Below are positions 41,605-58,461 of a DNA stretch of 64,000 nucleotides, piece by piece; within the stretch, counting starts at the first letter, position 1, and each line of letters opens with the position of its first letter. Below the pieces are notes generated by a model, which was not told the origin of the DNA, made no database searches, and saw only the letters and a list, made by a program, of their open reading frames with translations. Source of the stretch: a virus. The stretch is from UHGV virus genome UHGV-0277313, one strand, 5' to 3'. Position numbers and translations under genes: made by a program.

Positions 41605-41630
41605 TGTTATATTCCTATTTAAATTTCGTT
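41567..41630. repeat. 64-bp repeat, copy B
   Basis: Identical to copy A when read by eye. Confidence 0.85.
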
Positions 41631-42137
41631 TAAAACATCAATGTAATTTATAATAGAAGGGTCTTTGAAAGCTTCAGCAACTGTTTCATAACGTTTCAAA
41701 TATACAGCATCTTCTGTCATAAATTTAGGTATTTTGGTTGCTTTTATACTATTAACAGAATCATTCTCAAATGAATAGTAAAAACTATAATCAGTATCAT
41801 TTATTGCAAATAATATGGCAGGACGCTTGTTAATATCGGTTAAAATAACAAAAATTTGTAAAGGTAAATTTTCGAAATGTTTTTTAAACCCATTGACAAA
41901 GTCTTTAAACAATTCCTCAACATTATCAAACATGATGGTTTTATAATCTAAAAATGAAAGAGGTACATCTAGTGTAGGTGATGTATGTACGTCATATTTT
42001 AAATAATCATCTTTTAAATACTTTGTAAAAACAGATATAAATGCCGTTTTGTTAACTATGTATTTATTATATTCAGATTCTTCTTTAAATCGTGACGAAG
42101 TTGCTTCTTCATAATATTTAAAATATAGATTATTCAT
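41619..42137 (-). CDS. paralog family protein 7 of 7
   Basis: C-terminal FKDPSIINYIDVLNEI. Confidence 0.6.
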   Translation of the reverse strand: MNNLYFKYYEEATSSRFKEESEYNKYIVNKTAFISVFTKYLKDDYLKYDVHTSPTLDVPLSFLDYKTIMFDNVEELFKDFVNGFKKHFENLPLQIFVILTDINKRPAILFAINDTDYSFYYSFENDSVNSIKATKIPKFMTEDAVYLKRYETVAEAFKDPSIINYIDVLNEI

Positions 42138-44386: not shown

Positions 44387-45442
44387 ATGACTTATTTGAC
44401 TGAAGAAGAAAGAGCTGCTAGAAAACAGTTGGCCCAACAAAAATACAAAAACAAAGAAGAAGTAAAAATAAGAAAAAGATTCAATGATTGCAACAGTCGA
44501 AGAAGACGGTTGGGTCTTTCTGTTTTCACATTTAATGAATGGCAGGAGTGGTATAAAAACAAGCATGCGCCAAAAGGATCATTGCTTCATAAATATAAAC
44601 AGTTTATTCAAGGTAGAAAAAAGAGAAAGTTGGAAATAATTTCGTTTGAAAAATATTGCGAATTGATTGCTGAACGTAATAGAAACAAATCAGCTAATGC
44701 TGAAGAGAGACGTTTACGCGCAAATCAAAAGGCAAAAGAAAGATATCATTCCAACGAAGAAGTGCGAAAAAGAAAAATGGAATATAGTAAGAAATACAGA
44801 AAAGAACATCCAGAAGTTCGAAGTAAATGTTATTATAAAAAGGCATACGAAAAGTATAAAGAAAAAGTTGCAAACATGTCTGAAGCAGAACGTGAGCTGT
44901 TGAAAAGAAAAATTTATGAAAATAAACAGAGATTTTTAAAAAATATGTCCGAAGAAAAACGTTTGGAATATAAAAAGAAACATGCTGCTCGTTCAAGAGA
45001 CTATTGGCGTAATTTGTCACCTGAAAAACGTCTGGAACTTAAAGAGAGAAAAGCTGAATACTATAAAAATCGTTGCAAAAATAATTTGGAAAAAGTATAT
45101 GAACATTTGGTAAAACAACGTGAAAGAACAGGTATAAAGAAAAAGGATAGTTTTGAAGATTACTTGAAAAAGAAACGTGATATGGATAATAAAACAAATC
45201 ACTATAATGAAGACTTAAGTTTTCTTAATGAAAAATTCCCGTTAAGTCAAAAATTATTGTCTATTGAAGAATACAATAGAAGAACATTTATAATGCAAAA
45301 ATTACAACGTGTCCTTAAACATTTAGGTTTATCAACTAAAATTTTGATGAATTATAAAAGAGGTCACTATACAATGCAACAACTAAAGACTTTTTTAGAA
45401 ATGTACCAAAATAAAGAATGGAAAAATAATGAACGAAAATGA
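44387..45442 (+). CDS. highly basic K/R/E-rich repetitive protein
   Basis: Repeated units of the N.SEEKRLEYKKKH / NLSPEKRLELKERK type. Confidence 0.55.
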   Translation: MTYLTEEERAARKQLAQQKYKNKEEVKIRKRFNDCNSRRRRLGLSVFTFNEWQEWYKNKHAPKGSLLHKYKQFIQGRKKRKLEIISFEKYCELIAERNRNKSANAEERRLRANQKAKERYHSNEEVRKRKMEYSKKYRKEHPEVRSKCYYKKAYEKYKEKVANMSEAERELLKRKIYENKQRFLKNMSEEKRLEYKKKHAARSRDYWRNLSPEKRLELKERKAEYYKNRCKNNLEKVYEHLVKQRERTGIKKKDSFEDYLKKKRDMDNKTNHYNEDLSFLNEKFPLSQKLLSIEEYNRRTFIMQKLQRVLKHLGLSTKILMNYKRGHYTMQQLKTFLEMYQNKEWKNNERK

Positions 45443-45749
45443 GATCAGAGCTTTTCTAAAAGAAAACATTTATAACATTAAAAAGTTTGCAAACGGAAGT
45501 CCATATGATGGTGAAACAGTTTCCTATAATTTGGGAAACACTTTTGTTGTAACTTGTGAAGAATATTTTGATAAAGCATCATATCAATTAAGGTTTAATA
45601 ATAAAATTTCAGAAGATATATTGGCAAAAATTATCTTTGAGTATGTTGATAAACTTTATAAAGAGGTTGTTGAAAAGCCTGATAAAGATTCAGATTGGAA
45701 TTGGCGTTTGTCGCAAGCAACAAATACAACCTTAAGAAATCAGTGGTAG
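45429..45749 (+). CDS. hypothetical protein
   Basis: ORF. Confidence 0.5.
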   Translation: MNENEIRAFLKENIYNIKKFANGSPYDGETVSYNLGNTFVVTCEEYFDKASYQLRFNNKISEDILAKIIFEYVDKLYKEVVEKPDKDSDWNWRLSQATNTTLRNQW

Positions 45750-45751
45750 AT

Positions 45752-46261
45752 ATGCAATATAGATGTGTTGGTTTCGAAAGACTTGCCTTTAGCGGCTTTG
45801 ATCTTTTTATAAACGATTATCGTGATCACGATAATTTATTCGCATCAGGTTGTATTATCTTTTACAAAAAAGATAATTTGTTTCATTTTGTGCTATTAGG
45901 TCGATTAGGAATTTATGTATTAGCACCAGTTGTACAGTATATTTTAAAAGATATTGTAGAGGGCAGCATTTTAGATGCCGATAATTTCTATGCTTATGGT
46001 TTTAATAGTAAAGAAGAGGATCGATATATCACAAATAATTTTGTAAAAGTTAAACCTTTTTATGTGCTTTACGAAAAATTATCAGACGGAAACAACTTAT
46101 ATTGCGATTGTGAAAAGTTTTGTATAGGTTTAGAAAGAAATCAGTCTTTGATATTTAATAGTAAAAAAGATGCTCAAACGTTTATCAAAGATAATCAATT
46201 AAAGAATAACATTATTAAAGTTGATAGGTTGTTTCAAATGAAATTTGGGGATGCTATATGA
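45752..46261 (+). CDS. hypothetical protein
   Basis: Internal ATG chosen to avoid a 55-nt overlap with the upstream gene. Confidence 0.45.
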   Translation: MQYRCVGFERLAFSGFDLFINDYRDHDNLFASGCIIFYKKDNLFHFVLLGRLGIYVLAPVVQYILKDIVEGSILDADNFYAYGFNSKEEDRYITNNFVKVKPFYVLYEKLSDGNNLYCDCEKFCIGLERNQSLIFNSKKDAQTFIKDNQLKNNIIKVDRLFQMKFGDAI

Positions 46262-46812
46262 GGTTTGCTAATTTAAATTATTTGGGTGCGACATATCTAA
46301 CAGAAAATGAAATACAGAGAGTGTTTTTCTATAAGATAGATAACACCTTAATTCCTATATCCCTAAACTTTATTGATTTTATGAAGATTTTTTATATCGA
46401 TGCGAAGTGCGATCTGAATAGTTGCCTGACTAATATTTATTGCTATGATCTAAATGATGTAGACGACAATGATGTTTCTGTAGATAACAAAATATATATG
46501 ACGAAATCTTTTACAAACTATTCAAGACCTGTAGAAAATGTCTGTTTCTTCTATTATAAAAAGAAACGGTATTTGCAAATGCAAAAGATTTTATCATGGC
46601 AACAATCAGATGATTTTAACATTACAATATCTTCTGTAAAAAAAGTGCACCATTTCGAGAATGTTCAATTGATTGTTGTAGAAAATCAGTTTCAACATTA
46701 TGTTAGTGTGAATTCAATTGAGTACAATAAAAATGTTTACGGGTTACCTAGATATGAGACTGTGAAACTTTTAAAATACAATTCAAGTTTAAAGCAATAT
46801 GTTGAAGCTTGA
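46258..46812 (+). CDS. hypothetical protein
   Basis: ORF with ATGA coupling. Confidence 0.5.
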   Translation: MRFANLNYLGATYLTENEIQRVFFYKIDNTLIPISLNFIDFMKIFYIDAKCDLNSCLTNIYCYDLNDVDDNDVSVDNKIYMTKSFTNYSRPVENVCFFYYKKKRYLQMQKILSWQQSDDFNITISSVKKVHHFENVQLIVVENQFQHYVSVNSIEYNKNVYGLPRYETVKLLKYNSSLKQYVEA

Positions 46813-46865
46813 CAATGTTTGTTTTATGTGATAGATTGAACTATCAAATTATGAAAGGAACCTAA

Positions 46866-47213
46866 ATGCTGCATTTGTTTGGAAAACTGTTTTCGAATAA
46901 ACCTATTTATATTAAAAAGAAAAAGGATACAATTTTTTATTCAGTTAACTTTCCATTTGTAACAAGTGATTGGTTAACTTTTCACATTTTAGGTTTGAAG
47001 AAAATAAACGATCGTAGGGTTGTAGCAGTTATCAGAAACATTTTAACATGTGATATTTATGAGGTTGATATCGACGAGTTGAACCACTTTTATAAAAAGT
47101 TTGATAAATATAATTTGTTGTTTAAAAGTCAATTAAGTATTTATAATAAAAAGATTCACGATGGAACAATTCCTGTGATAGAATATAAAAAGTTTGAAAC
47201 TCTGTTTGTTTAA
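46866..47213 (+). CDS. hypothetical protein
   Basis: RBS AAAGGAA. Confidence 0.5.
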   Translation: MLHLFGKLFSNKPIYIKKKKDTIFYSVNFPFVTSDWLTFHILGLKKINDRRVVAVIRNILTCDIYEVDIDELNHFYKKFDKYNLLFKSQLSIYNKKIHDGTIPVIEYKKFETLFV

Positions 47214-47224
47214 AGGATTAAAAA

Positions 47225-47446
47225 ATGTCTGAAGATGATATCAATAATTTTTTTGTAAATTATATTAATGAAAATGGATCAAATGAAACAACAAGTTACC
47301 CTAAAAGTGTTTGTGGTAATATTATTTGTCCTAAATGTCATCATGATACAGGTTATCCGATGGTAACATGTGAAGTTGTTTATGCAGATAAACATTGTCC
47401 ATTTTGTGGAAATGTCGTTGTACATGCTATGAATATCATGTGTTGA
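47225..47446 (+). CDS. small zinc-ribbon protein
   Basis: CPKCHHD...CPFCG. Confidence 0.5.
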   Translation: MSEDDINNFFVNYINENGSNETTSYPKSVCGNIICPKCHHDTGYPMVTCEVVYADKHCPFCGNVVVHAMNIMC

Positions 47447-47453
47447 GGATTTA

Positions 47454-47834
47454 ATGGAATATAGTTATTTGCTTTGTGAAGTAGGTACTCAAGATAGAGT
47501 TATATTTTTTAAGACTTCAAGAAAGTTCAGAAAAACAAATGTCGTAACTACAGTAAACGAGTTTATGGATTTATGTGAATTGGAATTACAACAAAATAAT
47601 GTAATAAAAGTTCATGGGTACTATACAAAAAGAACACATGTTATTCATTATTATATAGACAACACAACTGTTTATACTGAAAGATCTTTGACTGTTACAG
47701 TTGGCTGGAAAACTTTACGTGATAAGTTTAAAAGAAGATTTGGATGTGATGTAGAGATACTTCATAAAAAATATTGTTCGTACATAATTGTCCAAAATGC
47801 TAGTATTGGAAGTAATCTATTGAAAGATATTTAA
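47454..47834 (+). CDS. hypothetical protein, tandem paralog A
   Basis: About 65% identical to 47852..48235. Confidence 0.55.
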   Translation: MEYSYLLCEVGTQDRVIFFKTSRKFRKTNVVTTVNEFMDLCELELQQNNVIKVHGYYTKRTHVIHYYIDNTTVYTERSLTVTVGWKTLRDKFKRRFGCDVEILHKKYCSYIIVQNASIGSNLLKDI

Positions 47835-47851
47835 ATAGTGTTGAGGTTTTA

Positions 47852-48235
47852 ATGGAATATTGTTTTTTGTTTGGTGAAGTAAGAGGAACTCAAGATAAAT
47901 TTATGTTTTTTAAATCTTCATGTAAGTTTAAAGAAACAAATATTGCCAACACAGTAAACGAGTTTATGAATTTATGTGAACTGGCATTGCAACAGAATAA
48001 TGTAATAAAAATTTATGGACATTATACAAAAAAGTCACATGTTACTCATTTTTATGCAGAAAGCACAACTATTTATACAGAAAAACCTCAACATGTCTAT
48101 GTTGGTTGGAAAGTTTTACGGGATAAGTTTAAAAGAAGGTTCGGGAGAGATGTAGAAATACTTCATGAAAAATATTATGGATCAATCATTGTTAAAAATA
48201 CTAATATTGGAAGTAATTTATTAAAAGATATTTAA
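47852..48235 (+). CDS. hypothetical protein, tandem paralog B
   Basis: Shares NVIK(V/I)(H/Y)G(Y/H)YTK and WK.LRDKFKRRFG blocks with paralog A. Confidence 0.55.
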   Translation: MEYCFLFGEVRGTQDKFMFFKSSCKFKETNIANTVNEFMNLCELALQQNNVIKIYGHYTKKSHVTHFYAESTTIYTEKPQHVYVGWKVLRDKFKRRFGRDVEILHEKYYGSIIVKNTNIGSNLLKDI

Positions 48236-48240
48236 ATAGC

Positions 48241-48459
48241 GTGGAGACTTTAATGAACGATTATGATGTTAAAGAGAAGTTGTTGTTGATATTGATTCTA
48301 ATTATTATCATCGCATTGCCTGCCTCGTGCAGTTATGATATAGGTAAAATTGAAGGTAAAGCTGAAACGGTCCAAGAACTGTGTTCAAAAACTGAATACG
48401 ATTTCTGTGTAAAAGTACAACAGAAACCTATATATACTCTTAAAAATGATATTGACTAA
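48241..48459 (+). CDS. small membrane/secreted protein
   Basis: Hydrophobic LLLILILIIIIALPASC segment. Confidence 0.4.
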   Translation: METLMNDYDVKEKLLLILILIIIIALPASCSYDIGKIEGKAETVQELCSKTEYDFCVKVQQKPIYTLKNDID

Positions 48460-48851
48460 ATGAAAGAAACAATATGTTCCAAAACCGAGAAGAATTAAAA
48501 GAAGACTTCGATGAAGTTCCTGTGAACGAAAATCAAATTTGTTACCCTGATGAAGATTGTTTGGAAATCTTAAAGGAAAATGAAGATTGAATAGACATAG
48601 CTTTTTTAAATTATTTCCAATTCTATACGACGTAAAATGATTTGTAAAATGGTGGAAAAAAGCATTTAGTTGAAAAGTGTTATATCAGATTTGGAAGAAT
48701 TCCTAAAAATGAAAAAAGTGGAATTCATTTAGGTAAAGATATACGTTTTGAAAATGGGGTTTCTGTTTGGGATGCTGTAAAATTAAAGGACGGTTATCAT
48801 CTTGTTGCTCCTCTTCAAGGAAATACTTGCACTTATACCGATTTTATAAAA

Positions 48852-49046
48852 ATGGCGTTTCCTCAAGAGTGGTATGGAGATTTCGTTTCACATGAACCAA
48901 TTTATGTCGTTTCTGGTGATGAAGTCGGTCGTGGAAGTGATAATGAACCTTTACTGAAAAATATAAAAATAATTGAAGAATTACCTTTTGATTATTTTAA
49001 CTATGGCCCCACATATGAAAAGTATATGCCAAAGGAAAAAGAATGA
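48852..49046 (+). CDS. hypothetical protein; the frame is open for a further 68 codons upstream (see findings)
   Basis: ATG ORF. The upstream in-frame translation looks protein-like but has no ATG. Confidence 0.4.
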   Translation: MAFPQEWYGDFVSHEPIYVVSGDEVGRGSDNEPLLKNIKIIEELPFDYFNYGPTYEKYMPKEKE

Positions 49047-49530
49047 ATGATTGTTGGTAAAGGAAAATTTTAAAGTCCATGAAATGTTTATAAAAAAATT
49101 CGTGAAGTTGAAAAATTGTGTGCACTTTAATAATAGGTAATGATAAGTGGTGCTTTGCGATAAAAGAAATGCTTTATGATAAAAAATAAAGAAAGATTAT
49201 AATAAAAGATAACTATAATAATGGTAAAAGAAAAAGAGAGTATTATAATGGGATGAATGAAAGTTAATGTTGTGTGAGTGATGATTAGGATGGGGTGATT
49301 TTGGTATGCAGGGAAAATGATGTATGAAGTAGTGAAGATGAAGACAGTAAGAGATGAAAGATATTAGTCTGAAGAAAGGGTAAGATGATTGGGGAAATGA
49401 GTGTGGGGGTTATGTGGTGGCAAAAGGTGAAGAAGATGAAGAATATGAATAACGGCGATGTTTATGGTGTTGCATGAAAATTGGATGAATCGAAGAGTAT
49501 TGTGTATTCTATCTCGTGCCTGTTTTTCGG

Positions 49531-49559
49531 TATAACTATATTATCGAAAGGGAATAGAG
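49531..49559 (+). repeat. repeat unit ataactat(att)atcgaaagggaatagag, copy 1
   Basis: Second copy at 49743..49765. Confidence 0.6.
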
Positions 49560-49713
49560 CAGATAGGAAAACGGCAAGCGGGGCGCAAGCCCCTATACCG
49601 AAAGCCTTATTGACTATATAGGGATATATAGTAGAGTTAGGTATAAGGAAATCAGTATAACAGGCTTGATAGGTAGTTAATACCGAAAAACCCGCTTGCC
49701 GTTAAAATTCCTG

Positions 49714-49742
49714 TTGACAAGTTTCTGATTTTTTGATAGTAT
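49714..49742 (+). promoter_or_regulatory. sigma70-like promoter TTGACA-N17-TAGTAT
   Basis: Predicts a transcript starting at repeat copy 2. Confidence 0.45.
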
Positions 49743-49765
49743 ATAACTATCGAAAGGGAATAGAG
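49743..49765 (+). repeat. repeat unit, copy 2
   Basis: ataactatcgaaagggaatagag. Confidence 0.6.
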
Positions 49766-50549
49766 GATAAACAGGGATTTAAGGTATCAGAGGAAACTGG
49801 TATCATAGGTAAAGCTTTTATTAAGCATTGTTTGACATATAAGACAGTGTTTAATAAAAGCTTTATTTGTTAATGGTACGGTATCCGATACCTGATAAAC
49901 AGTTAAGCTGTTGTATCACTTGTTAATAAAGAGTGGTATAGCGGGTTAACGACCTTTAATCAGTCATTATAAAGTGGTAAAGCAAAGTAATGACGAAATG
50001 ATTAAAGGAATTATCAGGTTCACGTGTGAAAAAGAAAGCACGGCGGAACTATATACAGAATAAATAAAGTGAATGAAATGTCGTTTCAATTTTGTTGAGT
50101 TTAGAAACGACTGAAAACTTTAATCTTAAAATCAATTAAGGTTAAAGTGAAACAATCTATATTATTTAATATAGATTTAAACAGTTAAGGCAAGACTGAA
50201 AAGAAATGCCTTGATAGGTAATAACTCAACGGGATCAAATTCCCTTAATGAAAATAGATGAATTAAAAATAGTTTGTTTATTTTTCGTTAAGGGTGAAAA
50301 TACGGTGGTGAGCCAATCGACAAAAAGTTTCACGACCGTAAAACAAACCGTCTGAAATGGTTTGGATTTGTCTAGGTCAGTTTACTGATTTGAACTCACT
50401 CCTGCTTTAAGTGTATGTGAGAAGTAGGCTGTGGAACAAATCTGTATTGAAATAGATTACTCTAAGTCATTTCAGATATTTTAAGAACAGATTGGAATAA
50501 ACTAAAATAGAATGAAATGGTTTATTCCGAAACAAGAAAGGAAAAGAAA

Positions 50550-50963
50550 ATGATTAGAAACTTCACGCCGCATAAAATCAATCTGTTCGCCGAAGACGGC
50601 AGAATATTGAAAGTATTCGAGCCGGAAGGGCTTGCAAGGGCGGAACAAAAGGCCATCATCGTTGACGAAATTCAATTCGGGAACGACATTGTTCCCGTCA
50701 AAAAGATGATTTTCGGGAGCGTCGAAGGACTTCCCGAAACGGCGGGAGAATACGATAAATTTATCGTGTCGTCCATCGCCGCACAGGCGGCGATGGAGAC
50801 GAACCATCCGTTGAAAAATCAGCTCTTGGTCGTTGCAGACCCTGTTCGCAACGAAGACGGACAAATTATAGGCTGTAAAGCCTTTTCGACTTTCCGAGAT
50901 GAGAATGATCTCGGCGAGATTATGAGCTTGGCTAACAAGCTCAACGACAAATACGCTCGGTAA
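50550..50963 (+). CDS. hypothetical protein (first gene of the higher-GC module)
   Basis: SD AAGGAAA upstream of MIRNF. Confidence 0.55.
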   Translation: MIRNFTPHKINLFAEDGRILKVFEPEGLARAEQKAIIVDEIQFGNDIVPVKKMIFGSVEGLPETAGEYDKFIVSSIAAQAAMETNHPLKNQLLVVADPVRNEDGQIIGCKAFSTFRDENDLGEIMSLANKLNDKYAR

Positions 50964-50970
50964 TATTAGA

Positions 50971-51010
50971 TTTAACAAGGTGGGAGTTGTCCAGATTCCC
51001 ACCCTTTAAA
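50971..51010 (+). promoter_or_regulatory. conserved intergenic stem-loop element, copy 1
   Basis: TTTAACAAG, then stem ggtggga ... tcccacc, then CTTTAAA. Confidence 0.55.
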
Positions 51011-51054
51011 TCTATTCCACAGTGGGGTGGATCCAACCAGAAAGGGAAAATAAT

Positions 51055-51348
51055 ATGACAATCAAAAAAGAAAAAAATTTCACCGTCACCGTAACTTACT
51101 TCAATGATTATAAAGGGGAATGGGTGACTGTTCCCCTGTCCGAAGCCCCGGACGAGTTGATAAACCCGTCTGCAACCGTGGCAGATATTGCCAATATGCA
51201 CGCTGAAATGCGTGCAAGTTTAAAGGCGTTGTACGACGCCTACGATGAAATGGAGCAAATAGAGTATCAGGAATGGTACTCTGAACAACAGGCGGCGGCG
51301 CAGAAAGCCGCCGAAATAGAAATGGCGTACAAACAAAGGTACGCCTAA
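51055..51348 (+). CDS. hypothetical protein
   Basis: RBS AGGGAAAA. Confidence 0.5.
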   Translation: MTIKKEKNFTVTVTYFNDYKGEWVTVPLSEAPDELINPSATVADIANMHAEMRASLKALYDAYDEMEQIEYQEWYSEQQAAAQKAAEIEMAYKQRYA

Positions 51349-51398
51349 ATGTTAATGATAGGACAAGATTGGACAGAAATTGTTTAGTCTTGCCCTAT

Positions 51399-51449
51399 CT
51401 AGTTTCATTTAGTGTAACTAGTTTTTATAATTGCACTAAATGAAACTAG
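51399..51449 (+). promoter_or_regulatory. 16-bp perfect inverted repeat (operator-like) flanking a TATAAT hexamer
   Basis: ctagtttcatttagtg - N19 containing TATAAT - cactaaatgaaactag. Confidence 0.55.
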
Positions 51450-51484
51450 ATCAGAGTGATCTAGTACAGCAAGGAGTTGCAAAA

Positions 51485-51832
51485 ATGAAAGCACAAAATT
51501 ACACATATAGAACGCCGTTCGGAGACGAACTGGCGATCATAACAGGAAAATCAGCAGCACGGGGACGTGATAACCTTCGCAACACCCGCAAAGCCCTAGC
51601 AGCTGCAAACGATATCATATCCACTTTACAAGCGGATGTTAAAGAAAGGCACGCTTGTACAGTTCGTTTGCGTCTTCGCAAGAACAAAGAAATTGCCAGT
51701 TTGTTGGCAGAGGTTGCCAGTTTGAAAGCTGAAAATGAAGCTTTGAAAGATGCGGCGGAGATGTGGCAAACTATTGCCAAATCGAGTGTGACGGCATCTG
51801 GAGAGCTGTTGGATGCTCTCGAAAATGACTAG
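51485..51832 (+). CDS. hypothetical coiled-coil protein
   Basis: SD AAGGAG. LKAENEALKD coiled coil. Confidence 0.55.
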   Translation: MKAQNYTYRTPFGDELAIITGKSAARGRDNLRNTRKALAAANDIISTLQADVKERHACTVRLRLRKNKEIASLLAEVASLKAENEALKDAAEMWQTIAKSSVTASGELLDALEND

Positions 51833-51835
51833 ATT

Positions 51836-51880
51836 GAATTTAACAAGATGGGGATTTGAATAAGATCCCCATCCTTTAAG
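51836..51880 (+). promoter_or_regulatory. conserved intergenic stem-loop element, copy 2
   Basis: TTTAACAAG, stem gatggggat/atccccatc, then CTTTAAG. Confidence 0.55.
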
Positions 51881-51904
51881 TTCAACTAATGAAAGGAAAC
51901 AGAA

Positions 51905-52198
51905 ATGAATATGGAAAAATACAACTATCGTTTCGGGGCAACAATGACCGAGATTATCAAAAATCTCGGTGTTGAAACGGCATTGCCAAACCCTGATTTG
52001 TCTCTGACGAACTTGACACGTGCTGTCAAGACGCACGTGCTTCAAACGCTTGAAAAAGACGGAAAGCAATACGTTATCGTCTCTGATTGCGGCGAGTATG
52101 CTATCGCCGAAATTAAGGCGATTGGTTCTGCGGAAGATGTTGCCAAATTCGTCAAAGAAAATGACTTGGGAGAGGAGTTGATCTCCGAAGTCATTTAA
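51905..52198 (+). CDS. hypothetical protein
   Basis: SD AAAGGAAA. Confidence 0.55.
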   Translation: MNMEKYNYRFGATMTEIIKNLGVETALPNPDLSLTNLTRAVKTHVLQTLEKDGKQYVIVSDCGEYAIAEIKAIGSAEDVAKFVKENDLGEELISEVI

Positions 52199-52202
52199 TC
52201 AG

Positions 52203-52247
52203 CTTAACAAGGTGGAATTGAATTTGATTTAGTTCCACTCTTTAAAC
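52203..52247 (+). promoter_or_regulatory. conserved intergenic stem-loop element, copy 3
   Basis: CTTAACAAG, stem ggtggaa/ttccact, then CTTTAAAC. Confidence 0.5.
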
Positions 52248-52272
52248 TGATTTTTAATTAGGGGGTGCGCAA

Positions 52273-52476
52273 ATGATAAAAAAGATCTTGAAGTTTATGA
52301 ATGATGAAATGATGATCCGTTATGACATAATGTATCCCATAGAATATGGGTACATTGAGAACGGTAAAGTGATATGTTCGAAATGGCGTGCACGGCGTCG
52401 TTTGGTCATTGATTGGTTTTTCGACGTGTGGATGAAAGGCCTTTCTGCTTACTCTTTGAAGAAAGTTGAGGAGTGA
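52273..52476 (+). CDS. hypothetical protein
   Basis: RBS GGGGGTG. Confidence 0.5.
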   Translation: MIKKILKFMNDEMMIRYDIMYPIEYGYIENGKVICSKWRARRRLVIDWFFDVWMKGLSAYSLKKVEE

Positions 52477-52481
52477 TTAAA

Positions 52482-52751
52482 ATGAAGCAATTCGAAATAA
52501 AGATTGTCAATGAACTTTGTGGTGTGCCAGACGAGATGTCGCCTGATACATCACTGACAGCATCACTAAAAGTTGCTATTAACTTTTACGAATGCATTGT
52601 GGAATATCTGTATTTTTCCTATATGCGATTGGAGAATTCGAATTTTCTGAAACGTCCGTGGTGGATGTTTTGGAAAAGTAAAGAAGAATACTTTCGGGAA
52701 CAATACATTCTCGATCGTAAAAGAAGAGGATTAGATCGAAATGCTTTATAG
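52482..52751 (+). CDS. hypothetical protein
   Basis: SD GAGGAG. Confidence 0.5.
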   Translation: MKQFEIKIVNELCGVPDEMSPDTSLTASLKVAINFYECIVEYLYFSYMRLENSNFLKRPWWMFWKSKEEYFREQYILDRKRRGLDRNAL

Positions 52752-52968
52752 TCTTCTTTTAATTGCGGTTGTTTTGTCAACGACTGCCTTTGTGTGTTAC
52801 AGTATGATTTCTGATTTTATTCAGAAACCGTACAGAAAAGAAAATTCGGGGAAAGTTTTGGTTGACAGAAGTTATTTCCCCGAAAAACGAACCGTTCGTC
52901 CTGAATTGGTCGCCTTGGCAAAAAGGTTGTCGATTGAGGATGAACTTGATTACAGAAGATGGAAATGA
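52741..52968 (+). CDS. small membrane protein
   Basis: TM segment LLLIAVVLSTTAFVCY. Confidence 0.45.
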   Translation: MLYSLLLIAVVLSTTAFVCYSMISDFIQKPYRKENSGKVLVDRSYFPEKRTVRPELVALAKRLSIEDELDYRRWK

Positions 52969-53057
52969 ATGCTTCTGTAATAGTTGTCACTGAATTTGGT
53001 GTGCTAAATAGTAAGTGAGGAAAATTCTTCCTTACTTTACTTTTAAGGAGAAAGAAA

Positions 53058-53249
53058 ATGGTGAAATTCAAGAATACAAAATTTGTTAATTGGTGTTATT
53101 ATCACTGGAAACAGTTGAGGGGCACATTAACAAAGACAGACATCGCTGTTCATTGTGCTATTTTCAATAACCAAAAAGTTGTTGAATTGCACGCGGCTCA
53201 ATTGAAACCGTCTGATTATACAGGCGTTGTGAAAAGAGGTGTAAGATGA
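53058..53249 (+). CDS. hypothetical protein
   Basis: SD AAGGAG. Confidence 0.5.
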   Translation: MVKFKNTKFVNWCYYHWKQLRGTLTKTDIAVHCAIFNNQKVVELHAAQLKPSDYTGVVKRGVR

Positions 53250-53464
53250 GTAGTTTTATCAAAATCGACTATGGTATCGTGAGAAAAGAATCGATTTCTG
53301 GTTTAACAAGGGCAAAGGGACAATACCCTTGGAACGGGAAGACGCACTGGGACATCGAAGTGCATCTTCAAGGCACAAAAGTGTGTTTGGAATTTGATTC
53401 GGAATTTGAACGAAACACGGAGTTCAGCCGAATTGCAAACGAACTCAAAAAAGAGGGTGATTAA
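53246..53464 (+). CDS. hypothetical protein
   Basis: Overlapping start and stop. Confidence 0.5.
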   Translation: MSSFIKIDYGIVRKESISGLTRAKGQYPWNGKTHWDIEVHLQGTKVCLEFDSEFERNTEFSRIANELKKEGD

Positions 53465-53465
53465 A

Positions 53466-53978
53466 ATGGCCAAACAAATTGAAGATTACACAGCGGATGA
53501 ACTGTCCGCGAAGATTAAGGCGATTAAGGCGGAACGCGAACGCACGGCAAATGCACTCAAGCGATATGAGGAAGAACTGGAACGGAGGAAAAACAAAAAC
53601 TGGCTTCCGTTGAAAGAAGAAGTTAACTTTACCATAAATAAGCTAACCCTTAGTACAGCTTGTATCGAAATAAAAGTTCGAGAAGGATTTTATGATGAAG
53701 ATTCGTTTCATAAATATCTTTCCGCCTTAAAATCCATTAGAAAGGCGTGGTTTGCTAATTCTAAAGGCGAACCGATTGATATTGAAGTTTTGAAGCCGTT
53801 ATTGCGGAAAGGCTGGGTTGCAATGGATAAAGACGGGGGTTGGTATTGGTATGAAAAAAAGCCGCGTAGATCGTATGCCAATTGGGGGACTGGGATTTGC
53901 CTTTCTAGAACTCTGGAAGGTTTCAATATCAAACCCGTAGAAAATTGGGAAAACAGTTTGCAGGAGTGTGGGTCATGA
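53466..53978 (+). CDS. hypothetical protein
   Basis: SD AGAGGGTG upstream of MAKQIEDY. Confidence 0.55.
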   Translation: MAKQIEDYTADELSAKIKAIKAERERTANALKRYEEELERRKNKNWLPLKEEVNFTINKLTLSTACIEIKVREGFYDEDSFHKYLSALKSIRKAWFANSKGEPIDIEVLKPLLRKGWVAMDKDGGWYWYEKKPRRSYANWGTGICLSRTLEGFNIKPVENWENSLQECGS

Positions 53979-54220
53979 AAAAAGATGAAAAGATATTCCT
54001 GCAAGCACGAAACCAAAAGAAGATGAAGCTTAACAAATGGTGGAAAAAGCTTCTGGAAAAATACCCTTTTATGGGATATGAACATGGAAGCATGAAATAT
54101 CTTTCTATAATGGGAAAAGATACAGGGCTTAAAATAAATTCACCAAGGTTGATTAAAAAGAACATCCTGAAACGGTCAAACGACCAAACCAAGTGGATTG
54201 TAGGAGGTGGGAATGAATAA
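53975..54220 (+). CDS. hypothetical protein
   Basis: SD AGGAG, ATGA overlap. Confidence 0.5.
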   Translation: MKKDEKIFLQARNQKKMKLNKWWKKLLEKYPFMGYEHGSMKYLSIMGKDTGLKINSPRLIKKNILKRSNDQTKWIVGGGNE

Positions 54221-54461
54221 TCCTATAATCATTGACGTTGAATGGAGAGAAGTTTCCTGTTCAACGGAAGCGGTTATTGAACCGAAAGTAATGGTTCAGA
54301 AACAAAAGTGGAACAAGGTGGATAAAGTGATATTCACCTTGTTTTATTCAGAAATCGCCTTTATTGTTCTGCGGTTCATGTATGAGTGTTATACAAATTA
54401 CATGTTCTGGTCTGAACATGGTGGTGTAACTTTACATAAGGTGTTCTTTGGAATGCCTTAA
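54213..54461 (+). CDS. hypothetical protein
   Basis: SD AGGAGGTG. Confidence 0.5.
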   Translation: MNNPIIIDVEWREVSCSTEAVIEPKVMVQKQKWNKVDKVIFTLFYSEIAFIVLRFMYECYTNYMFWSEHGGVTLHKVFFGMP

Positions 54462-54471
54462 GGAGAAAACA

Positions 54472-55275
54472 ATGTTAACTATTGAAAAATTGAAAAAAAT
54501 CGCATCCACATGTCCTTATGGTGGTTGGTTGGCAGTAACCGAAGGTACTGGTGAACTTGTGTGGTCATGGTTTAAAAGAAAACCGTATTTTAACGGTGAT
54601 GCTTGGGTGCGAGACGAAGATGAAGACGTAGAATGCTGTGAAGTATTTGATTGGCTCAACGAGCAGGGTGTAAAGTGGCATCAACTTGATGACTTGCTCG
54701 ACTTGATTGATACATCACCGGAAAGCGTTTGCATCAAGTGTGGAACTGCTAAAAAACAAAAACCTTTTAAACCGATTATAGACAAATTGAAACCGGAGAT
54801 AAAAGATGGCTTTCTGTGTGATGACGGTAAGAACATTTATTGGTCACCGGGTAATTTTGGTTTCGAAATCGCAGACCAAAATTTGGCATTCCCTGAAAAT
54901 GAATTCGTTTTCAAATTGGTGAAAAAACCTAAGGGGACGAAATATTGTCATACAAAAGAAAAGACGGTGATGATGTGCAGGGGCAATGGTTACCGTACTG
55001 TATATTTGTTCTCAACATTTAAAATGTTTGAGACAAATCTTTGCGAACAAAAGGTGTCGTTTGACGATTTGAATAAAGACTTCGCAAAAATTGAAAAAGG
55101 CACGGTAAGTTTTGCAAAGGTGTACCGTGATTACGGAACGTGGGGGTCTCCGAAATGGGTCGAGTGTAATAAAGAAGATTACATTCGCATTGTTAAAGAT
55201 TTTGACGAGTACAGCAAAACTTGGAAAGCAAAATACGACGAAGACCAAAAACAGTTAAAACTGGTTCACTTGTAA
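54472..55275 (+). CDS. hypothetical protein (Cys-rich)
   Basis: SD AAGGAG. Confidence 0.55.
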   Translation: MLTIEKLKKIASTCPYGGWLAVTEGTGELVWSWFKRKPYFNGDAWVRDEDEDVECCEVFDWLNEQGVKWHQLDDLLDLIDTSPESVCIKCGTAKKQKPFKPIIDKLKPEIKDGFLCDDGKNIYWSPGNFGFEIADQNLAFPENEFVFKLVKKPKGTKYCHTKEKTVMMCRGNGYRTVYLFSTFKMFETNLCEQKVSFDDLNKDFAKIEKGTVSFAKVYRDYGTWGSPKWVECNKEDYIRIVKDFDEYSKTWKAKYDEDQKQLKLVHL

Positions 55276-55297
55276 CAACAAAGGAGAAAAACGAGAG

Positions 55298-55678
55298 ATG
55301 TTAGAAAAAATCAAAAAAGAGATGGGTTTCGAATTCATGGATTTGGAACCCTTGTTCTACGAGGCTGTCTTAAGCCTTGAATTCGTACCGAACCCGTATG
55401 GCATTGTACGGGTGTTAAGTGCGCTCGACATGAAAAACATCTGCACGTGGGCGGACAGATGGATTGAGGGCATCGAGGAATTCAATCAATACCGCGAAAA
55501 AAAGTACGCGGCAAACACCTTGGAAAAGTTCAAGACGTTTGCCGAAATGTTGTATTCGGAACTGGAGAGCGACAGTGAAAAGAAGACGTATTTTATTTAT
55601 ACGCCTTCTGAAGAAGCAATCAATGCGTTCAAAAAAGAAAACGGGATTGCCGAAGACGACGACGGACTTCAGTGGTAA
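55298..55678 (+). CDS. hypothetical protein
   Basis: SD AAAGGAG. Confidence 0.55.
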   Translation: MLEKIKKEMGFEFMDLEPLFYEAVLSLEFVPNPYGIVRVLSALDMKNICTWADRWIEGIEEFNQYREKKYAANTLEKFKTFAEMLYSELESDSEKKTYFIYTPSEEAINAFKKENGIAEDDDGLQW

Positions 55679-55722
55679 ATTTAACAAGAAGTGCATTGGG
55701 GTTACTGATGCACTTCCTTTAA
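55678..55722 (+). promoter_or_regulatory. conserved intergenic stem-loop element, copy 4
   Basis: TTTAACAAG, stem gaagtgcat/atgcacttc, then CTTTAAG. Confidence 0.55.
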
Positions 55723-55751
55723 GTTTACAACATCAACAAAGGAGAAAGATC

Positions 55752-55973
55752 ATGAAACGTATGGGTCGTGAATTTTACAGAACGGGAAAAATCGAAGCAC
55801 AGAATGATGTGCTGAAAGGACGGTATGCGATTTATAAAACCCGTCAAGGGTTGGAAATCGTTTTTCATGAGTCGTATCGTGCGGACATTATGTCTGACAT
55901 TGAACGACAGATTGAAAAGAACCCGCGCGGAACGTGGTATTGTGAAAAGAAATATCACGTACTCAAGAAGTGA
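55752..55973 (+). CDS. small hypothetical protein
   Basis: SD AAAGGAG. An internal start is chosen within the longer frame. Confidence 0.5.
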   Translation: MKRMGREFYRTGKIEAQNDVLKGRYAIYKTRQGLEIVFHESYRADIMSDIERQIEKNPRGTWYCEKKYHVLKK

Positions 55974-56043
55974 AATTATAAAGAAGACATCTGAAATATG
56001 GTGTCTTCCTATAATTTCACTTGACAAGGAAAGGAGTAAGACG

Positions 56044-56214
56044 ATGAAAAAACAATTTCACAGATTACTTCTGACAAAGAGTCAGATGGAAAAACAAGCT
56101 AGACTGTATGCTGAACAGTTTGGCGATGATTATGATGAAGCTTTTGACGAGATGATAAAGTCTTGCCAAAAGTATAACAAATTTATTCTAGAAGGGAGTA
56201 AATGTGATGAATGA
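56044..56214 (+). CDS. small hypothetical protein
   Basis: SD GGAAAGGAG. Confidence 0.5.
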   Translation: MKKQFHRLLLTKSQMEKQARLYAEQFGDDYDEAFDEMIKSCQKYNKFILEGSKCDE

Positions 56215-56380
56215 GAAGGAAAGAATTTTCAGTCGTCTTAAACCGATTTCCTGCGTTGTCATGCTGATAGGTTTTATTCCTGCAATGATAACAGCTTTTG
56301 GCGACACGTATCTGACTTTTGTTGATTACGTGTCAGCGTTCGGTGGGTTCTTCGGAGCCTGTCTTATTAATGAAATTTAG
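56207..56380 (+). CDS. small membrane protein (57 aa)
   Basis: Unlisted ORF MNEKERIFSRLKPISCVVMLIGFIPAMITAFGDTYLTFVDYVSAFGGFFGACLINEI with SD GGGAG. Confidence 0.4.
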   Translation: MNEKERIFSRLKPISCVVMLIGFIPAMITAFGDTYLTFVDYVSAFGGFFGACLINEI

Positions 56381-56389
56381 GAGGAAGAA

Positions 56390-57049
56390 ATGAGTGTTAG
56401 CTTCGGGACAAAGTACGAACGCGAATTTACGGAACTGCAAATGGACGAAACCGGAGGGTTGCCCAAAGAAAAGTTCGAAAAGTTGTATAAAAACAATAAA
56501 CCGTCTGTACGGTATTTTTTATATCGTGCATACGGTTTGATGAAGAAAGCAAACGAAGCCTTTGCTGTTTCGTCGTGTGTGTCGAAAGCGACGAAAGACA
56601 AATCCAAAAAAATATGTTCGGAAGTCAGAGAATGTCTGATAAATATGTTGGTAGAGTGTGACGAAATGGAAAGATTTTTCGACACTGTAAAAACATATGG
56701 CGACATGCTGAAGAGCAATGCCGGATTTGTTAAAATCAGGACAGAGAATGATTTACGTTCAGTTTGTAATGATCATTCTGTGTTTTTTACAACGGACATG
56801 GAAAAGGCATGGTCTTTCTGGGAAAGAAAACAAAGTCTTGAACATTTTAAAGACACTTGTTACAACTCAAAAGAAATGCTCAATTTCTTTAAAGAGTTGG
56901 AACAGTCTTCGAGTGATACAGAGGTTAAGAAACATGCGAAACGTCTGTATGAAACAATCGAAGAACAGTTGAGGTTTTTCAAGGTATGTTATGGTGAGAC
57001 GTACCTTGATAACGCAAAAACTTTTGTCATATTTAACAAAGGAGAATGA
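56390..57049 (+). CDS. hypothetical protein
   Basis: SD AGGAGGAAG. Confidence 0.55.
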   Translation: MSVSFGTKYEREFTELQMDETGGLPKEKFEKLYKNNKPSVRYFLYRAYGLMKKANEAFAVSSCVSKATKDKSKKICSEVRECLINMLVECDEMERFFDTVKTYGDMLKSNAGFVKIRTENDLRSVCNDHSVFFTTDMEKAWSFWERKQSLEHFKDTCYNSKEMLNFFKELEQSSSDTEVKKHAKRLYETIEEQLRFFKVCYGETYLDNAKTFVIFNKGE

Positions 57050-57051
57050 CA

Positions 57052-57201
57052 ATGGAACCGAAACATGTTTCTAAAGGCATGAATGCCTATTTGGCCGAAA
57101 TGTTCAATAAGTGGGAAAGTGAAAACACACCCGCTTGGCAAAACAAAGAAATCCGCAAAAGCATTCTGGAATGGCGTGAAAAACATCCGGAATTGAAGTG
57201 A
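57052..57201 (+). CDS. small hypothetical protein (49 aa)
   Basis: Unlisted ORF MEPKHVSKGMNAYLAEMFNKWESENTPAWQNKEIRKSILEWREKHPELK with SD AAGGAG. Confidence 0.4.
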   Translation: MEPKHVSKGMNAYLAEMFNKWESENTPAWQNKEIRKSILEWREKHPELK

Positions 57202-57208
57202 GGGTAAA

Positions 57209-57919
57209 ATGGGAGAAACAGAAACAAAAACAAACACAAGATATAATCGTTCGGGTATTGAAACATATCTGAAACGAAATAAAGTGTTGCCGACAAAAAT
57301 CGGTTTTAAGGATTGTACCTTGACCGATGAAGACGTGGAACTTGTGAAAGGTCATAAGTTCGAGTCTGTCACTTTAAAAGATTGTCATATTCCAAGATTA
57401 TCAATGTTACCGAGATCTGAACAATACGTATTCAAGTATTCGGTTATTGATGAATACGACAGTCTTGCATTGACAAGTGAAAAACGAAGATTGGTTAAGT
57501 TTGACACTTGTCCGACAGTTATTCCGCATCTGAAGTGGTTGAAAGATTGGTTTCATATGTTGTTAATTATTGAAACACCGATCTTGACCGCAGATGGTTT
57601 GGAAAACATAACGTTGAAGTACAACAACGAAATTGCACTGATGGAATATACCTATTGGGACGCTTTTTATGTTTCAACATGTACGAAAGGTTTCGTACAG
57701 TCTGTGTTGGATCATTTACCCAAAGGTATTGTTCCTGATTACGACAACATGTACTTGCCCGTGACAAAGAAGACTTACTTGTATGATGGTGACGGTGTCT
57801 TTGCAACACACGTTCACATCGGCGCAAAAGATTGTGTGAAGTTACGGAACAAGTTGCAAAAAGCCTTGTCGAACATTGCAAACGGAAGATTAGGAGAGAA
57901 CAGTCTAGAAAGGATCTGA
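57209..57919 (+). CDS. hypothetical protein
   Basis: ORF. Confidence 0.55.
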   Translation: MGETETKTNTRYNRSGIETYLKRNKVLPTKIGFKDCTLTDEDVELVKGHKFESVTLKDCHIPRLSMLPRSEQYVFKYSVIDEYDSLALTSEKRRLVKFDTCPTVIPHLKWLKDWFHMLLIIETPILTADGLENITLKYNNEIALMEYTYWDAFYVSTCTKGFVQSVLDHLPKGIVPDYDNMYLPVTKKTYLYDGDGVFATHVHIGAKDCVKLRNKLQKALSNIANGRLGENSLERI

Positions 57920-58086
57920 AAAATGATAACACTGATGATTGTGTTGTTATACCGTTACACAACTATGTCAGGATTTATGGCAACCGTCTTAACGGTATGT
58001 TTGTGTTCATATCCGTCGTCTTTGGTGACTTTAGCTATTTTGACAATAGTTCCCAAAGACGACTTTTTTAATGAAGGAGAAAGAAA

Positions 58087-58458: not shown

Positions 58459-58461
58459 TTG

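Follow-up and report, generated by a model that had tools for sequence, protein, structure and literature searches.

A strictly conserved 1.07-kb non-coding element as a candidate for a new structured leader or non-coding RNA in a clade of large gut phages

The stretch of DNA analysed here, a window of 64,000 nt, belongs to a 276,920-bp scaffold of an uncultivated gut phage of the ~300 kb class. Between positions 49047 and 50549 it contains a gene-free gap, and within this gap lies a conserved unit of ~1.07 kb (49462–50528, plus strand) that shares its orientation with all flanking genes and with a predicted promoter inside it, P2. Both borders of the unit are sharp: conservation starts abruptly at TTATGG, where BLAST alignments begin (49462) in every lineage, and beyond 50528 the lineages diverge. 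The 3′ end always lies ~20 nt ahead of a ribosome-binding site, regardless of which gene comes next; here, the first downstream gene opens with the ATG at 50550. An earlier note on this DNA had placed a noncoding, hairpin-rich stretch at 49501–50516, and that description holds, with limits that the alignments shift outwards on both sides. The G+C content steps sharply at the element, from 27–30% to 38–44%, with variable gene cassettes on either side, and the element itself, at ~33% G+C, is not below its surroundings. Adjoining it on the 5′ side is a C-poor, purine-rich tract (49047–49461, plus strand; C 3.6%, G 27.5%, A 41%) that holds several TATAAT boxes at 49198–49249. The relatives L016, L027 and L026 have a tract of the same composition (2–4% C) and unalignable sequence, L024 has part of one, and L014 and L018 have none; the tract may or may not be part of the element. 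No paralogue was found by nhmmer in the 64 kb, where the element occurs once.

Wherever the DNA retrieved from a relative extends as far as the site, the element is there at full length. The relatives form three deep lineages within a clade of uncultivated gut phages of ~220–314 kb, and they share 77–100% identity over the element while whole genes flanking it on both sides have been gained or lost between them. Its conservation is at least equal to that of neighbouring coding DNA: identity reaches 80% in the L018 clade versus 72–77% in the upstream coding DNA, and 87% in L026 versus 74–76% in coding DNA, a neighbouring 351-aa protein there being just 57% identical. The 1.07 kb keeps the same order in all lineages with hardly any indels, and no lineage lacks any part of it. 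Long invariant blocks take in loops and linkers (33 nt at 50016–48, 26 nt at 50120–45), the linkers between hairpins ranking among the most conserved stretches of all. The indels that do occur measure 1, 2, 5, 6 and 7 nt, not a series of multiples of three, and no open reading frame (ORF), whichever frame or strand is read, is common to all three deep lineages. The element thus behaves as non-coding DNA. Its known range is narrow: exact-pattern scans of IMG/VR for distant homologues gave only one true contig, to which a scan of JGI metagenomes also led, a protein-based scan of IMG/VR gave none, and a scan of GTDB genomes gave two mis-binned phage contigs, both of the L018 clade. Protein searches with the neighbouring genes returned 2–8 clusters each, all inside this clade; among GenBank phages nothing matched at the DNA level, and a DNA polymerase of 25% identity was all that turned up. 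The neighbouring proteins have no Pfam match, with no candidate antitermination protein found among them, and we found nothing in the literature on the element or on accession LR756497. A host assignment from the names of metagenome-assembled genome bins was dropped, as Melainabacteria and Erysipelotrichaceae are inconsistent with each other.

The element folds far better than chance, most strongly on the plus strand. For 988 nt of that strand the minimum free energy is −329.8 kcal/mol, where dinucleotide shuffles give −204.5 ± 8.1 (z = −15.5); the minus strand also beats chance (z = −8.2), and the consensus fold energy is −259.7 kcal/mol on the plus strand versus −158.2 on the minus strand. 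Measured against column-shuffled alignments, seven of eight segments give z values from −5.7 to −12.8, the 5′ block giving −2.0. The consensus structure has 287 pairs, 98.6% paired, and double-sided changes are seen in 25 of them, compared with 1–5 in slid controls and with no instance of 25 in 500 shuffles, the structure used for this count having been built from the same sequences. Because there are only three deep lineages and most compensatory changes map to one split, that between the L018 clade and the rest, independent covariation events are few. Invariant G–U pairs are numerous in the consensus structure, and an unbiased, Watson–Crick-only fold of the window sequence gives 44 G–U outcomes, only modestly above 30 A–C. 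No helix encloses the whole unit, the fold being mainly a series of ~12 local hairpins or domains. The hairpin-rich character proposed from the single sequence is upheld, by the folding energy as well as by compensatory changes in relatives, and the four further perfect inverted repeats named alongside it are all present (49810–31/49844–65, 50154–64/50167–77, 50080–87/50105–12 and 50495–503/50520–28).

The unit opens with the conserved 5′ block (49462–49522, plus strand), which includes a small invariant hairpin (49462–66/49473–77). Further on, domain D1 (49571–49702, plus strand) forms a 132-nt irregular hairpin whose closing 12-bp, G+C-rich helix joins ACGGCAAGCGGG (49571–82) to CCCGCTTGCCGT (49691–702). 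This is the complementarity from which the earlier note had foreseen a domain of ~110 nt; with flanking bases included it amounts to 13 perfect base pairs, 108 nt apart. Inside D1 lie the helices CAAGCC/GGCUUG (49586–91/49663–68), UAUAC/GUAUA and CUAUAUA/UAUAUAG (49614–20/49625–31), with double changes in consensus helices 6, 7 and 9 and a column-shuffle z of −12.8. The GNRA hairpin GGGGC-GCAA-GCCCC, also recognised before, is present at 49580–49593 (plus strand) as an alternative to the CAAGCC/GGCUUG helix, and its changes in relatives are all C to U, giving G–U pairs. Since three G residues in the 5′ arm of the long-range pair overlap this hairpin, the two structures cannot both be fully formed. 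Extra complementarities of TTTTTCGGTAT (49522–33/49680–91 and 49525–34/49594–603), considered jointly with the long-range pair as a pseudoknot or switch, were rejected, as they are not conserved in L018, L026 and L024.

On either side of D1 stands a copy of a repeat built around a 17-nt motif, ATCGAAAGGGAATAGAG, at 49543 and 49749. At up to two mismatches these are the only two copies in 64 kb, where 0.02 would be expected by chance; the extended repeat measures 37 nt (49523–49559 and 49729–49765, both plus strand) and is 76% identical between copies. In copy 1 a helix (consensus helix 4) joins the T-rich arm UUUUUCGGUA to UAUCGAAAGG, a part of the motif (49543–49559); it is 100% paired and changes solely from U–G to C–G. 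In copy 2, with the motif at 49749–49765, UUUUUUGAUAGU pairs with ACUAUCGAAAGG across a −10 region (consensus helix 12), and an A–U / G–C / G–U change links the −10 hexamer to the motif flank. The −10 region in question is that of P2 (49714–49742, plus strand), which lies directly upstream of the second motif copy and reads TTGACA-N17-TAGTAT with an extended −10 (TG before the hexamer); the doubled motif and the promoter ahead of its second copy had both been picked out previously, and both stand. Across six sequence variants the hexamers are kept (TTGACA with TAGTAT, TAATAT or TAATGT), whereas the spacer, always 17 nt long, has a different 5′ half in each of the six. Hexamers, spacing and this pattern of kept hexamers and free spacer all fit a predicted sigma-70-type promoter. 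P2 is one of only six exact TTGACA-N16–18-TANNAT sites in 64 kb, and other strong TTGACA-type sites stand ahead of genes at 19366, 29885 and 44319 (second hexamer TATTGT at 44319).

A transcript from P2 is predicted to start at ~A49749, the first base of motif copy 2. The motif itself is ruled out as a phage-specific promoter by its mere two copies in 64 kb, and the evidence leans against copy 1 as a second sigma-70 promoter: it offers a TATAAC that resembles a −10 and stands in register with P2, an acceptable −35 is missing, and its would-be spacer, unlike that of P2, is invariant within the window group. P2 cannot be the sole start, because the conserved unit begins ~250 nt ahead of it (49462–49713, with motif copy 1 and D1 in this part) and because the conserved hairpin across its −10 region can form only in transcripts begun further upstream.

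Beyond the second motif copy comes a small hairpin, GGUAUCAG / CUGGUAUC (49783–49806, plus strand; −8.7 kcal/mol), with a loop that varies between lineages and a stem that is kept in other form in L018 (GGUAUC/GAUACC) and in L026. It leads into hairpin T (49804–49871, plus strand; −33.3 kcal/mol), ~55 nt beyond the predicted P2 start, in which a 30-bp A+U-rich stem is followed by the U-tract UUUAUUUGUU (49862–71). Stem and tail are invariant and the loop is variable, several of the invariant pairs being G–U (consensus helix 14); the minus strand of T has no U-tract. Terminator-like look-alikes occur at gene-block ends elsewhere, one of 20 bp at 28012–27966 and one of 12 bp at 35331–57. The stable stem and U-tract give T the form of an intrinsic terminator, with a stem unusually long and A+U-rich for one; T is thus terminator-like in shape, or possibly a site for a double-strand RNase.

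The remainder of the unit is a succession of conserved domains on the plus strand. D3 (49875–50054) is multi-branched and 180 nt long, its outer helices surrounding two long hairpins, at 49902–50 and 49953–50008, together with an invariant hairpin CGUGU-GAAAAAGAAA-GCACG (50023–42). It comprises consensus helices 15–22, with double changes in 15, 16, 17 and 20, and the column-shuffle z is −10.7 on the plus strand versus −3.2 on the minus strand. The hairpins D4 (50079–112), D5 (50118–47), D5b (50154–77) and D6 (50184–215) follow (50079–50215; z = −9.3). D5 shows one U–A to C–G double change, D5b has a wholly different sequence in the L018 clade and retains its hairpin there (ACUGUA../..UACAGU), and the loop of D4 (50091–101) is complementary to 50223–33, a possible pseudoknot. 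D7 (50242–94) and D8 (50302–39), which span 50242–50339 and consensus helices 26–29, have double changes in six pairs (column-shuffle z = −6.3). D9 (50350–50477; z = −8.1) is a long hairpin of 128 nt whose closing helix, of 17 bp (50350–66/50461–77), has five consecutive compensated pairs, GUCUG.../...CAGAU in the window and UAUCA.../...UGAUA in the L018 clade (consensus helix 30). The terminal feature of the conserved unit is hairpin D10, GGAAUAAAC / GUUUAUUCC (50493–50529; consensus helix 35).

No model of Rfam 15 (4227 models), a set that we take to include GOLLD, ROOL, RNase P, tmRNA, 6S, group I and group II introns, riboswitches and the phage pRNA, matches at its gathering score in the 64 kb window or in seven related loci (89 kb). 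At E ≤ 10, the only matches are miRNA-like ones on the long hairpin and sub-threshold noise that differs between homologues. ARAGORN found no tRNA or tmRNA in the window or in eight related loci, in agreement with the earlier note, which saw no canonical tRNA T-loop. This joint comparison with Rfam and tRNAs, on which that note had made its reading depend beforehand, has a negative outcome for the window and for seven related loci alike, and the region is therefore not accounted for by a known family. As to single candidates, the flanks are unrelated small genes that differ by lineage and no Rfam intron match rises above noise, which gives no sign of a group I or group II intron; a group II domain V reading of 50018–48 was discarded, its helix and loop form being wrong by eye and without an Rfam match. 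By eye, AAGGGUGAAAA..CGGU..GAGCC..CGUAAAAC (50288–50345) and GGAACAAAUC..GAUUAC (50433–60) recall the specificity domain and a P4 strand of RNase P. That candidate too was rejected, with no match even at E ≤ 10 and a would-be P4 partner (50118–29) that is a local hairpin with a compensatory change (consensus helix 24). Nor does the element resemble a CRISPR array or a tandem-repeat RNA such as ToxI, as it has only two-copy repeats without regular spacing.

Its near-intact conservation, its conserved hairpins around a host-type promoter and its lack of a known family make the element a good candidate for a new leader or non-coding RNA of phages. On the best reading of the sequence evidence it would be transcribed, and its highly structured product, either a leader or a non-coding RNA, would belong to a new family. 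More specifically, P2, T and a read-through RNA leading into the downstream gene block lead us to posit, tentatively and without holding it to be probable, a promoter–leader cassette in which the plus strand of 49462–50528 would give a long untranslated structured RNA with control of read-through at T. P2 (49714–42), as a host-type sigma-70 promoter, would start transcripts at ~49749, on the 17-nt motif AUCGAAAGGGAAUAGAG, and ~55 nt after the start polymerase would reach the 30-bp hairpin T and its U-tract (49804–71). Termination at T would yield an RNA of ~120 nt; read-through would yield one of ~780 nt, with seven further conserved hairpin domains, that would run directly into the ribosome-binding site of the following gene block. 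Read-through would then gate this downstream block of higher G+C content, in the manner of nut/put or Q-type antitermination, with the repeated motif as the candidate recognition site, and the long structured part may be a functional RNA by itself. No conserved antiterminator pairing was found in the element. The ~650 nt of conserved structure beyond T far exceed what an attenuator needs, an observation that counts against this cassette.

In lambdoid late control, PR′–qut–tR′ yields a short 6S transcript, and nut and put are antitermination sites. The element resembles the former in its predicted strong, constitutive host-type promoter, in the conserved sequence at the predicted transcript start, and in a terminator-like hairpin ~120 nt downstream with a long gene block beyond. 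The two copies of the motif recall putL/putR and nutL/nutR, and a GNRA-type hairpin ~20 nt after motif copy 1 recalls nut boxA–boxB. The layout alone (promoter, conserved motif, hairpin, terminator-like T) fits a nut/put/qut-type site, with no factor identified. In contrast to these systems, the element shows no sequence similarity to nut, put or qut by eye, no antiterminator gene, be it Q, N or another, was identified, its motif copies stand in tandem, 206 nt apart on one strand, and the conserved structured RNA beyond its terminator-like hairpin has no counterpart there.

A possible alternative, which we consider rather unlikely, is that the whole ~1.07 kb, perhaps with the C-poor tract, is itself the product: a large non-coding RNA of a new class that stands alone and acts in trans, with a size and setting like those of GOLLD or ROOL. 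It would act via its fold, perhaps in complex with some host or phage machine or by assembling with itself, and its position before genes would be incidental. Such an RNA would suit the invariance of loops and linkers over long blocks beyond the stems, the retention of the element regardless of the following gene, its better conservation than that of neighbouring proteins, the multi-branched domains and possible pseudoknot, and a conserved unit that begins 250 nt 5′ of P2. GOLLD and ROOL are Rfam families of large ornate RNAs from phages and prophages and from gut and rumen metagenomes (PMC5737381, PMC12286853). Like them, the element exceeds 0.5 kb, is multi-domain and non-coding, comes from a phage and gut setting, and conserves its loops as well as its stems. 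It differs in matching no Rfam model even at E ≤ 10, in having no adjoining tRNA genes in the window or related loci, as GOLLD and ROOL often do, and in being known from one phage clade only. It is moreover split by an internal promoter and a terminator-like hairpin, and it consists mostly of local domains in a row with no helix closing the whole. Doubtful to a further degree is that it would be an ornate phage RNA of a new class, ~1 kb or longer (perhaps with the C-poor tract), serving as an RNA machine or scaffold, a third phage giant RNA beside GOLLD and ROOL whose promoter and terminator would give short and long isoforms.

There is only a small chance, in our view, that the element is a cluster of small features that are independent of one another and kept together by position only: one or two small RNAs (D1 and the stretch from P2 to T), a terminator, hairpins that stabilise mRNA, and sites for double-strand RNase. 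The fold as ~12 local hairpins or domains in a row, the ~120-nt small RNA that P2 and T would give, and a long perfect hairpin of the kind that is a typical double-strand RNase substrate are what such a cluster would look like; the entire 1.07 kb, however, is kept in order with hardly any indels while flanking genes exchange, the linkers between hairpins are among its best-conserved stretches, and D3, at 180 nt, is a truly multi-branched domain.

Of the two explanations offered in the earlier note, one or more structured RNAs is favoured by the conservation, the compensatory changes, the plus-strand asymmetry and the same-strand promoter, whereas a replication or packaging element finds no iterons or AT-rich block, a motif present only twice, and folding that is strand-specific. 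We regard as very improbable any DNA-level role, be it as an origin of replication (for instance R-loop-primed from the purine-rich tract), in packaging, or as a conserved anchor for recombination at the edge of a mosaic segment. The sharp G+C step amid variable gene cassettes, the above-chance folding of the minus strand, and an upstream purine-rich, C-poor tract that could favour R-loops would be in keeping with one. Yet plus-strand folding is much stronger, with many conserved G–U pairs that are A–C on the other strand; the compensatory changes keep hairpins and not sequence, which a recombination anchor would not need; and we found no repeat family beyond the two-copy motif, no AT-rich unwinding block, and no turn in the cumulative GC skew, which follows gene direction here. 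ColE1 RNA II and the R-loop origins of phage T4 likewise have a promoter and then several hundred nucleotides of structured RNA, and the nearby G-rich, C-poor segment could form a stable template hybrid as in those systems. In the element, by contrast, the purine-rich tract precedes the structured part instead of lying at its 3′ end, neither an antisense RNA promoter nor origin features are evident, and the RNA would continue into a translated gene. Finally, a protein-coding origin, with the DNA decayed to a pseudogene or read in an alternative genetic code, is scarcely credible, even with short ORFs of 20–46 codons present and some large gut phages known to recode stop codons, given the indel lengths, the lack of an ORF common to the three deep lineages, substitutions that follow base pairing, and a window otherwise filled by long standard-code ORFs.

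Returning to the structured leader or non-coding RNA that we prefer, the element would mark where a transcription unit starts, and it lies where two halves of the genome that differ in composition meet. Promoter-early stem-loop (PeSL) cassettes of T4-type phages, which are short (tens of nucleotides) and present in many copies per genome, are similarly conserved units of promoter and hairpin bordering hypervariable gene cassettes, whereas the element is 1.07 kb long and occurs once in the window. Large structured non-coding RNAs are rare, and GOLLD, ROOL, OLE and raiA are each structurally unusual, with functions that are largely open. The phages of this clade have almost no annotated genes, and a strictly conserved element of 1.07 kb offers a concrete handle on their biology, as well as a defined RNA that lends itself to probing, to deletion studies and to cryo-EM. 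Should the layout of promoter, motif and terminator turn out to be a switch that works by antitermination, the clade would have its first described regulatory circuit.

The gene-free unit at 49462-50528 (+), 1.07 kb long, fits best with a transcribed, untranslated and highly structured plus-strand RNA that forms a fixed promoter-leader cassette before a changeable gene block. From 5' to 3', a conserved block (49462-522) is followed by the first copy of a 37-nt repeat (49523-59), in which the motif ATCGAAAGGGAATAGAG pairs with a T-rich arm, and by D1 (49571-702), an irregular hairpin of 132 nt. Promoter P2 (49714-42) overlaps the second repeat copy (49729-65), where a like pairing spans the -10 region. 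A small hairpin with a variable loop (49783-806) then leads into T, a 30-bp terminator-like hairpin with UUUAUUUGUU (49804-871), D3, a multi-branched domain of 180 nt with a 33-nt invariant core (49875-50054), hairpins D4, D5, D5b, D6, D7 and D8 (50079-50339), D9 (50350-477) and D10 (50493-529), about 20 nt 3' of which lie a ribosome-binding site and start codon. The features listed in the earlier note all recur at its coordinates, exactly or within one or two bases: the repeated motif (17-mer copies at 49543 and 49749, with no third in 64 kb at up to two mismatches and 0.02 copies expected from shuffles), the GNRA hairpin GGGGC-GCAA-GCCCC (49580-93), the long-range pair 49571-82/49691-702 (12-13 bp without mismatch) and all four further inverted repeats.

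Predicted folding is much stronger on the plus strand. There, 988 nt fold at -329.8 kcal/mol, below the -204.5 ± 8.1 of dinucleotide-shuffled sequence (z = -15.5), and the RNAalifold consensus of ten sequences reaches -259.7 kcal/mol on the plus versus -158.2 on the minus strand. Against column-shuffled alignments, plus-strand z-scores run from -5.7 to -12.8 in seven of eight segments (-2.0 in the 5' block), the minus strand being clearly weaker for domains D2, D3 and D9. The 287 consensus pairs, derived from the same sequences in which they were counted, are 98.6% paired versus ~42% in slid controls; 25 of them, most tracing to a single split, change on both sides versus 1-5 in the controls, and none of 500 shuffles reached the observed covariation score. 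In the D9 closing helix (50350-66/50461-77) five successive pairs are swapped (GUCUG/CAGAU vs UAUCA/UGAUA), D5b (50154-77) keeps its hairpin in the L018 clade, one of three deep lineages, despite a wholly different sequence, and CAAGCC/GGCUUG in D1 becomes CAAGCU/AGCUUG in the lineage L026. All changes in the GNRA hairpin are C to U, yielding a G-U pair. Given the shared derivation, the single split and the modest excess of G-U over A-C outcomes (44 vs 30) when the window by itself is folded with Watson-Crick pairs only, the conserved plus-strand fold has good support in our view but falls short of proof. The D4 loop (50091-50101, UUUGUUGAGUU) is complementary over 11 nt to the linker at 50223-50233 (AACUCAACGGG), and both are invariant; they may therefore form a pseudoknot around D5-D6. 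The linker also has an alternative partner, CCUGUUGA, at the -35 region (49710-17).

Relatives were found by using three neighbouring proteins as handles, each with only 2-8 clusters among 5.8 billion proteins searched, and fetching DNA around their homologues. The element is full length in every locus whose retrieved DNA covers the site and partial where a contig ends, at 77% to 100% identity across the three lineages (window group, L026, L018 clade); both motif copies occur on one 313,762 bp contig from IMG/VR. Its borders are sharp, with all alignments starting at 49462 and stopping at 50528; the DNA immediately 5' is unalignable between lineages, and the window's first downstream genes (50550-52270) are absent from the other lineages. 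Conservation equals or exceeds that of neighbouring coding DNA: in the L018 clade the element is 80% identical and the upstream genes 72-77%, and in L026 the figures are 87% and 74-76%, with a 351-aa protein close by at just 57% identity. Two contigs (CALAFU010000170.1 and CALBJM010000331.1) carry the complete element, 99% identical to that of the L018 clade, and are filed under MAG bins named Melainabacteria and Erysipelotrichaceae; as phage contigs swept into bacterial bins they say nothing about the host, and that assignment was dropped.

Indels of 1, 2, 5, 6 and 7 nt among relatives, together with the lack of an ORF common to the three lineages on either strand, rule out a protein-coding element; the longest ORF between 49047 and 50516 spans at most 46 codons. 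Nor do known RNAs explain the region. Scanned with Rfam 15, neither the window nor 89 kb of related loci gave a match that reached gathering score, and at E <= 10 there were only miRNA-like matches on the long hairpin that differ between homologues; ARAGORN found no tRNA in the window, where the earlier note had seen no canonical T-loop, and the related loci hold none. A likeness to RNase P, seen by eye, was dropped with no model match and the supposed P4 strand turning out to be a local covarying hairpin. The element thus fits no described RNA family and, as far as the searched collections show, occurs only in a single uncultivated phage clade with genomes of ~220-314 kb.

The window lies on a scaffold of 276,920 bp in a gut-type metagenome from ENA, with ~30% G+C and phage-like gene content: a DNA polymerase apparently split between 11489-13876 (+) and 29906-32281 (-), 16 kb apart on opposite strands, whose two genes match consecutive stretches of one PHROG profile and the second of which includes an HNH endonuclease segment, as well as an SbcC-like nuclease, an anaerobic ribonucleotide reductase and a MoxR-type ATPase with its DUF2201 partner. 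Among GenBank phages there is no DNA match and only a polymerase at 25% identity, and the proteins neighbouring the element have no Pfam domains. A tandem array of eight paralogous genes, 159-172 codons each, occupies 38540-42137 (-), in copy numbers that vary among relatives (L016, L024, L026, L028). The element sits within a run of plus-strand genes (44387 to 64000) and coincides with a sharp rise in G+C, from 27-30% in upstream genes (44-49 kb) to 38-44% downstream (50-64 kb). Upstream, the adjacent genes 47454-47834 and 47852-48235 (126 and 127 codons) are paralogues, ~67% identical, of which some relatives carry just one. Downstream, a 148-aa gene has its called ATG (50517) within the 3' arm of D10; translation more probably begins at the in-frame ATG at 50550, preceded by AAAGGAAAAG, for a product of 137 aa. 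Directly 5' of the element, 415 nt (49047-49461) are nearly C-free (3.6% C, 27.5% G, 41% A; 1-5% C per 100 nt across 49200-49499) and bear several TATAAT boxes (49198-49249), a composition, not a sequence, that recurs in L016, L027 and L026. To judge from this composition, an untranslated RNA from the tract would lack Rho-loading sites, and its purine-rich transcript could promote R-loops.

P2, reported earlier as TTGACA-N17-TAGTAT and found with a TG extension, keeps TTGACA in all six sequence variants, with TAGTAT, TAATAT or TAATGT at -10 and a constant 17-nt spacer whose 5' half differs in each, as would be expected if the promoter is functional. The window has just six exact TTGACA-N16-18-TANNAT sites; strong TTGACA-type sites are also found ahead of genes at 19366, 29885 and 44319, and the exact promoter at 19366-19393 shares spacer words with P2 (TTTCTGAT ... 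TTTGATA), hinting that the phage has a small class of such host-type promoters. Hairpin T, with a U-tract on the plus strand only, resembles in form the terminator-like sites at other gene-block ends of the phage (28012-27966 and 35331-57).

We propose that P2 would initiate transcripts on the motif; those ending at T would be RNAs of ~120 nt, and those reading through would give a structured RNA of ~780 nt that continues into the mRNA. The P2-motif-T layout is similar to lambdoid PR'-tR' and nut/put control in arrangement only, as the element shows no sequence similarity (judged by eye), identified factor or antiterminator pairing. Strictly conserved structure extends for ~650 nt beyond T, and ~250 nt of the conserved unit, with the hairpin across the -10 region, precede P2. 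Both points suggest to us an RNA with a role beyond attenuation, and the second means that transcripts from further upstream must matter. The main rival, a stand-alone large non-coding RNA of a new class, is compatible with the promoter-leader cassette. A DNA-level role, whether as a replication origin or packaging site (the earlier note's alternative to structured RNA) or as a recombination anchor, is made less likely by strand-asymmetric folding, conserved G-U pairs and an element without iterons or an unwinding block. Phage-borne structured RNAs and leaders have precedents as a kind, and the putative promoter-leader element described here is a solid, experimentally tractable RNA candidate of narrow distribution.
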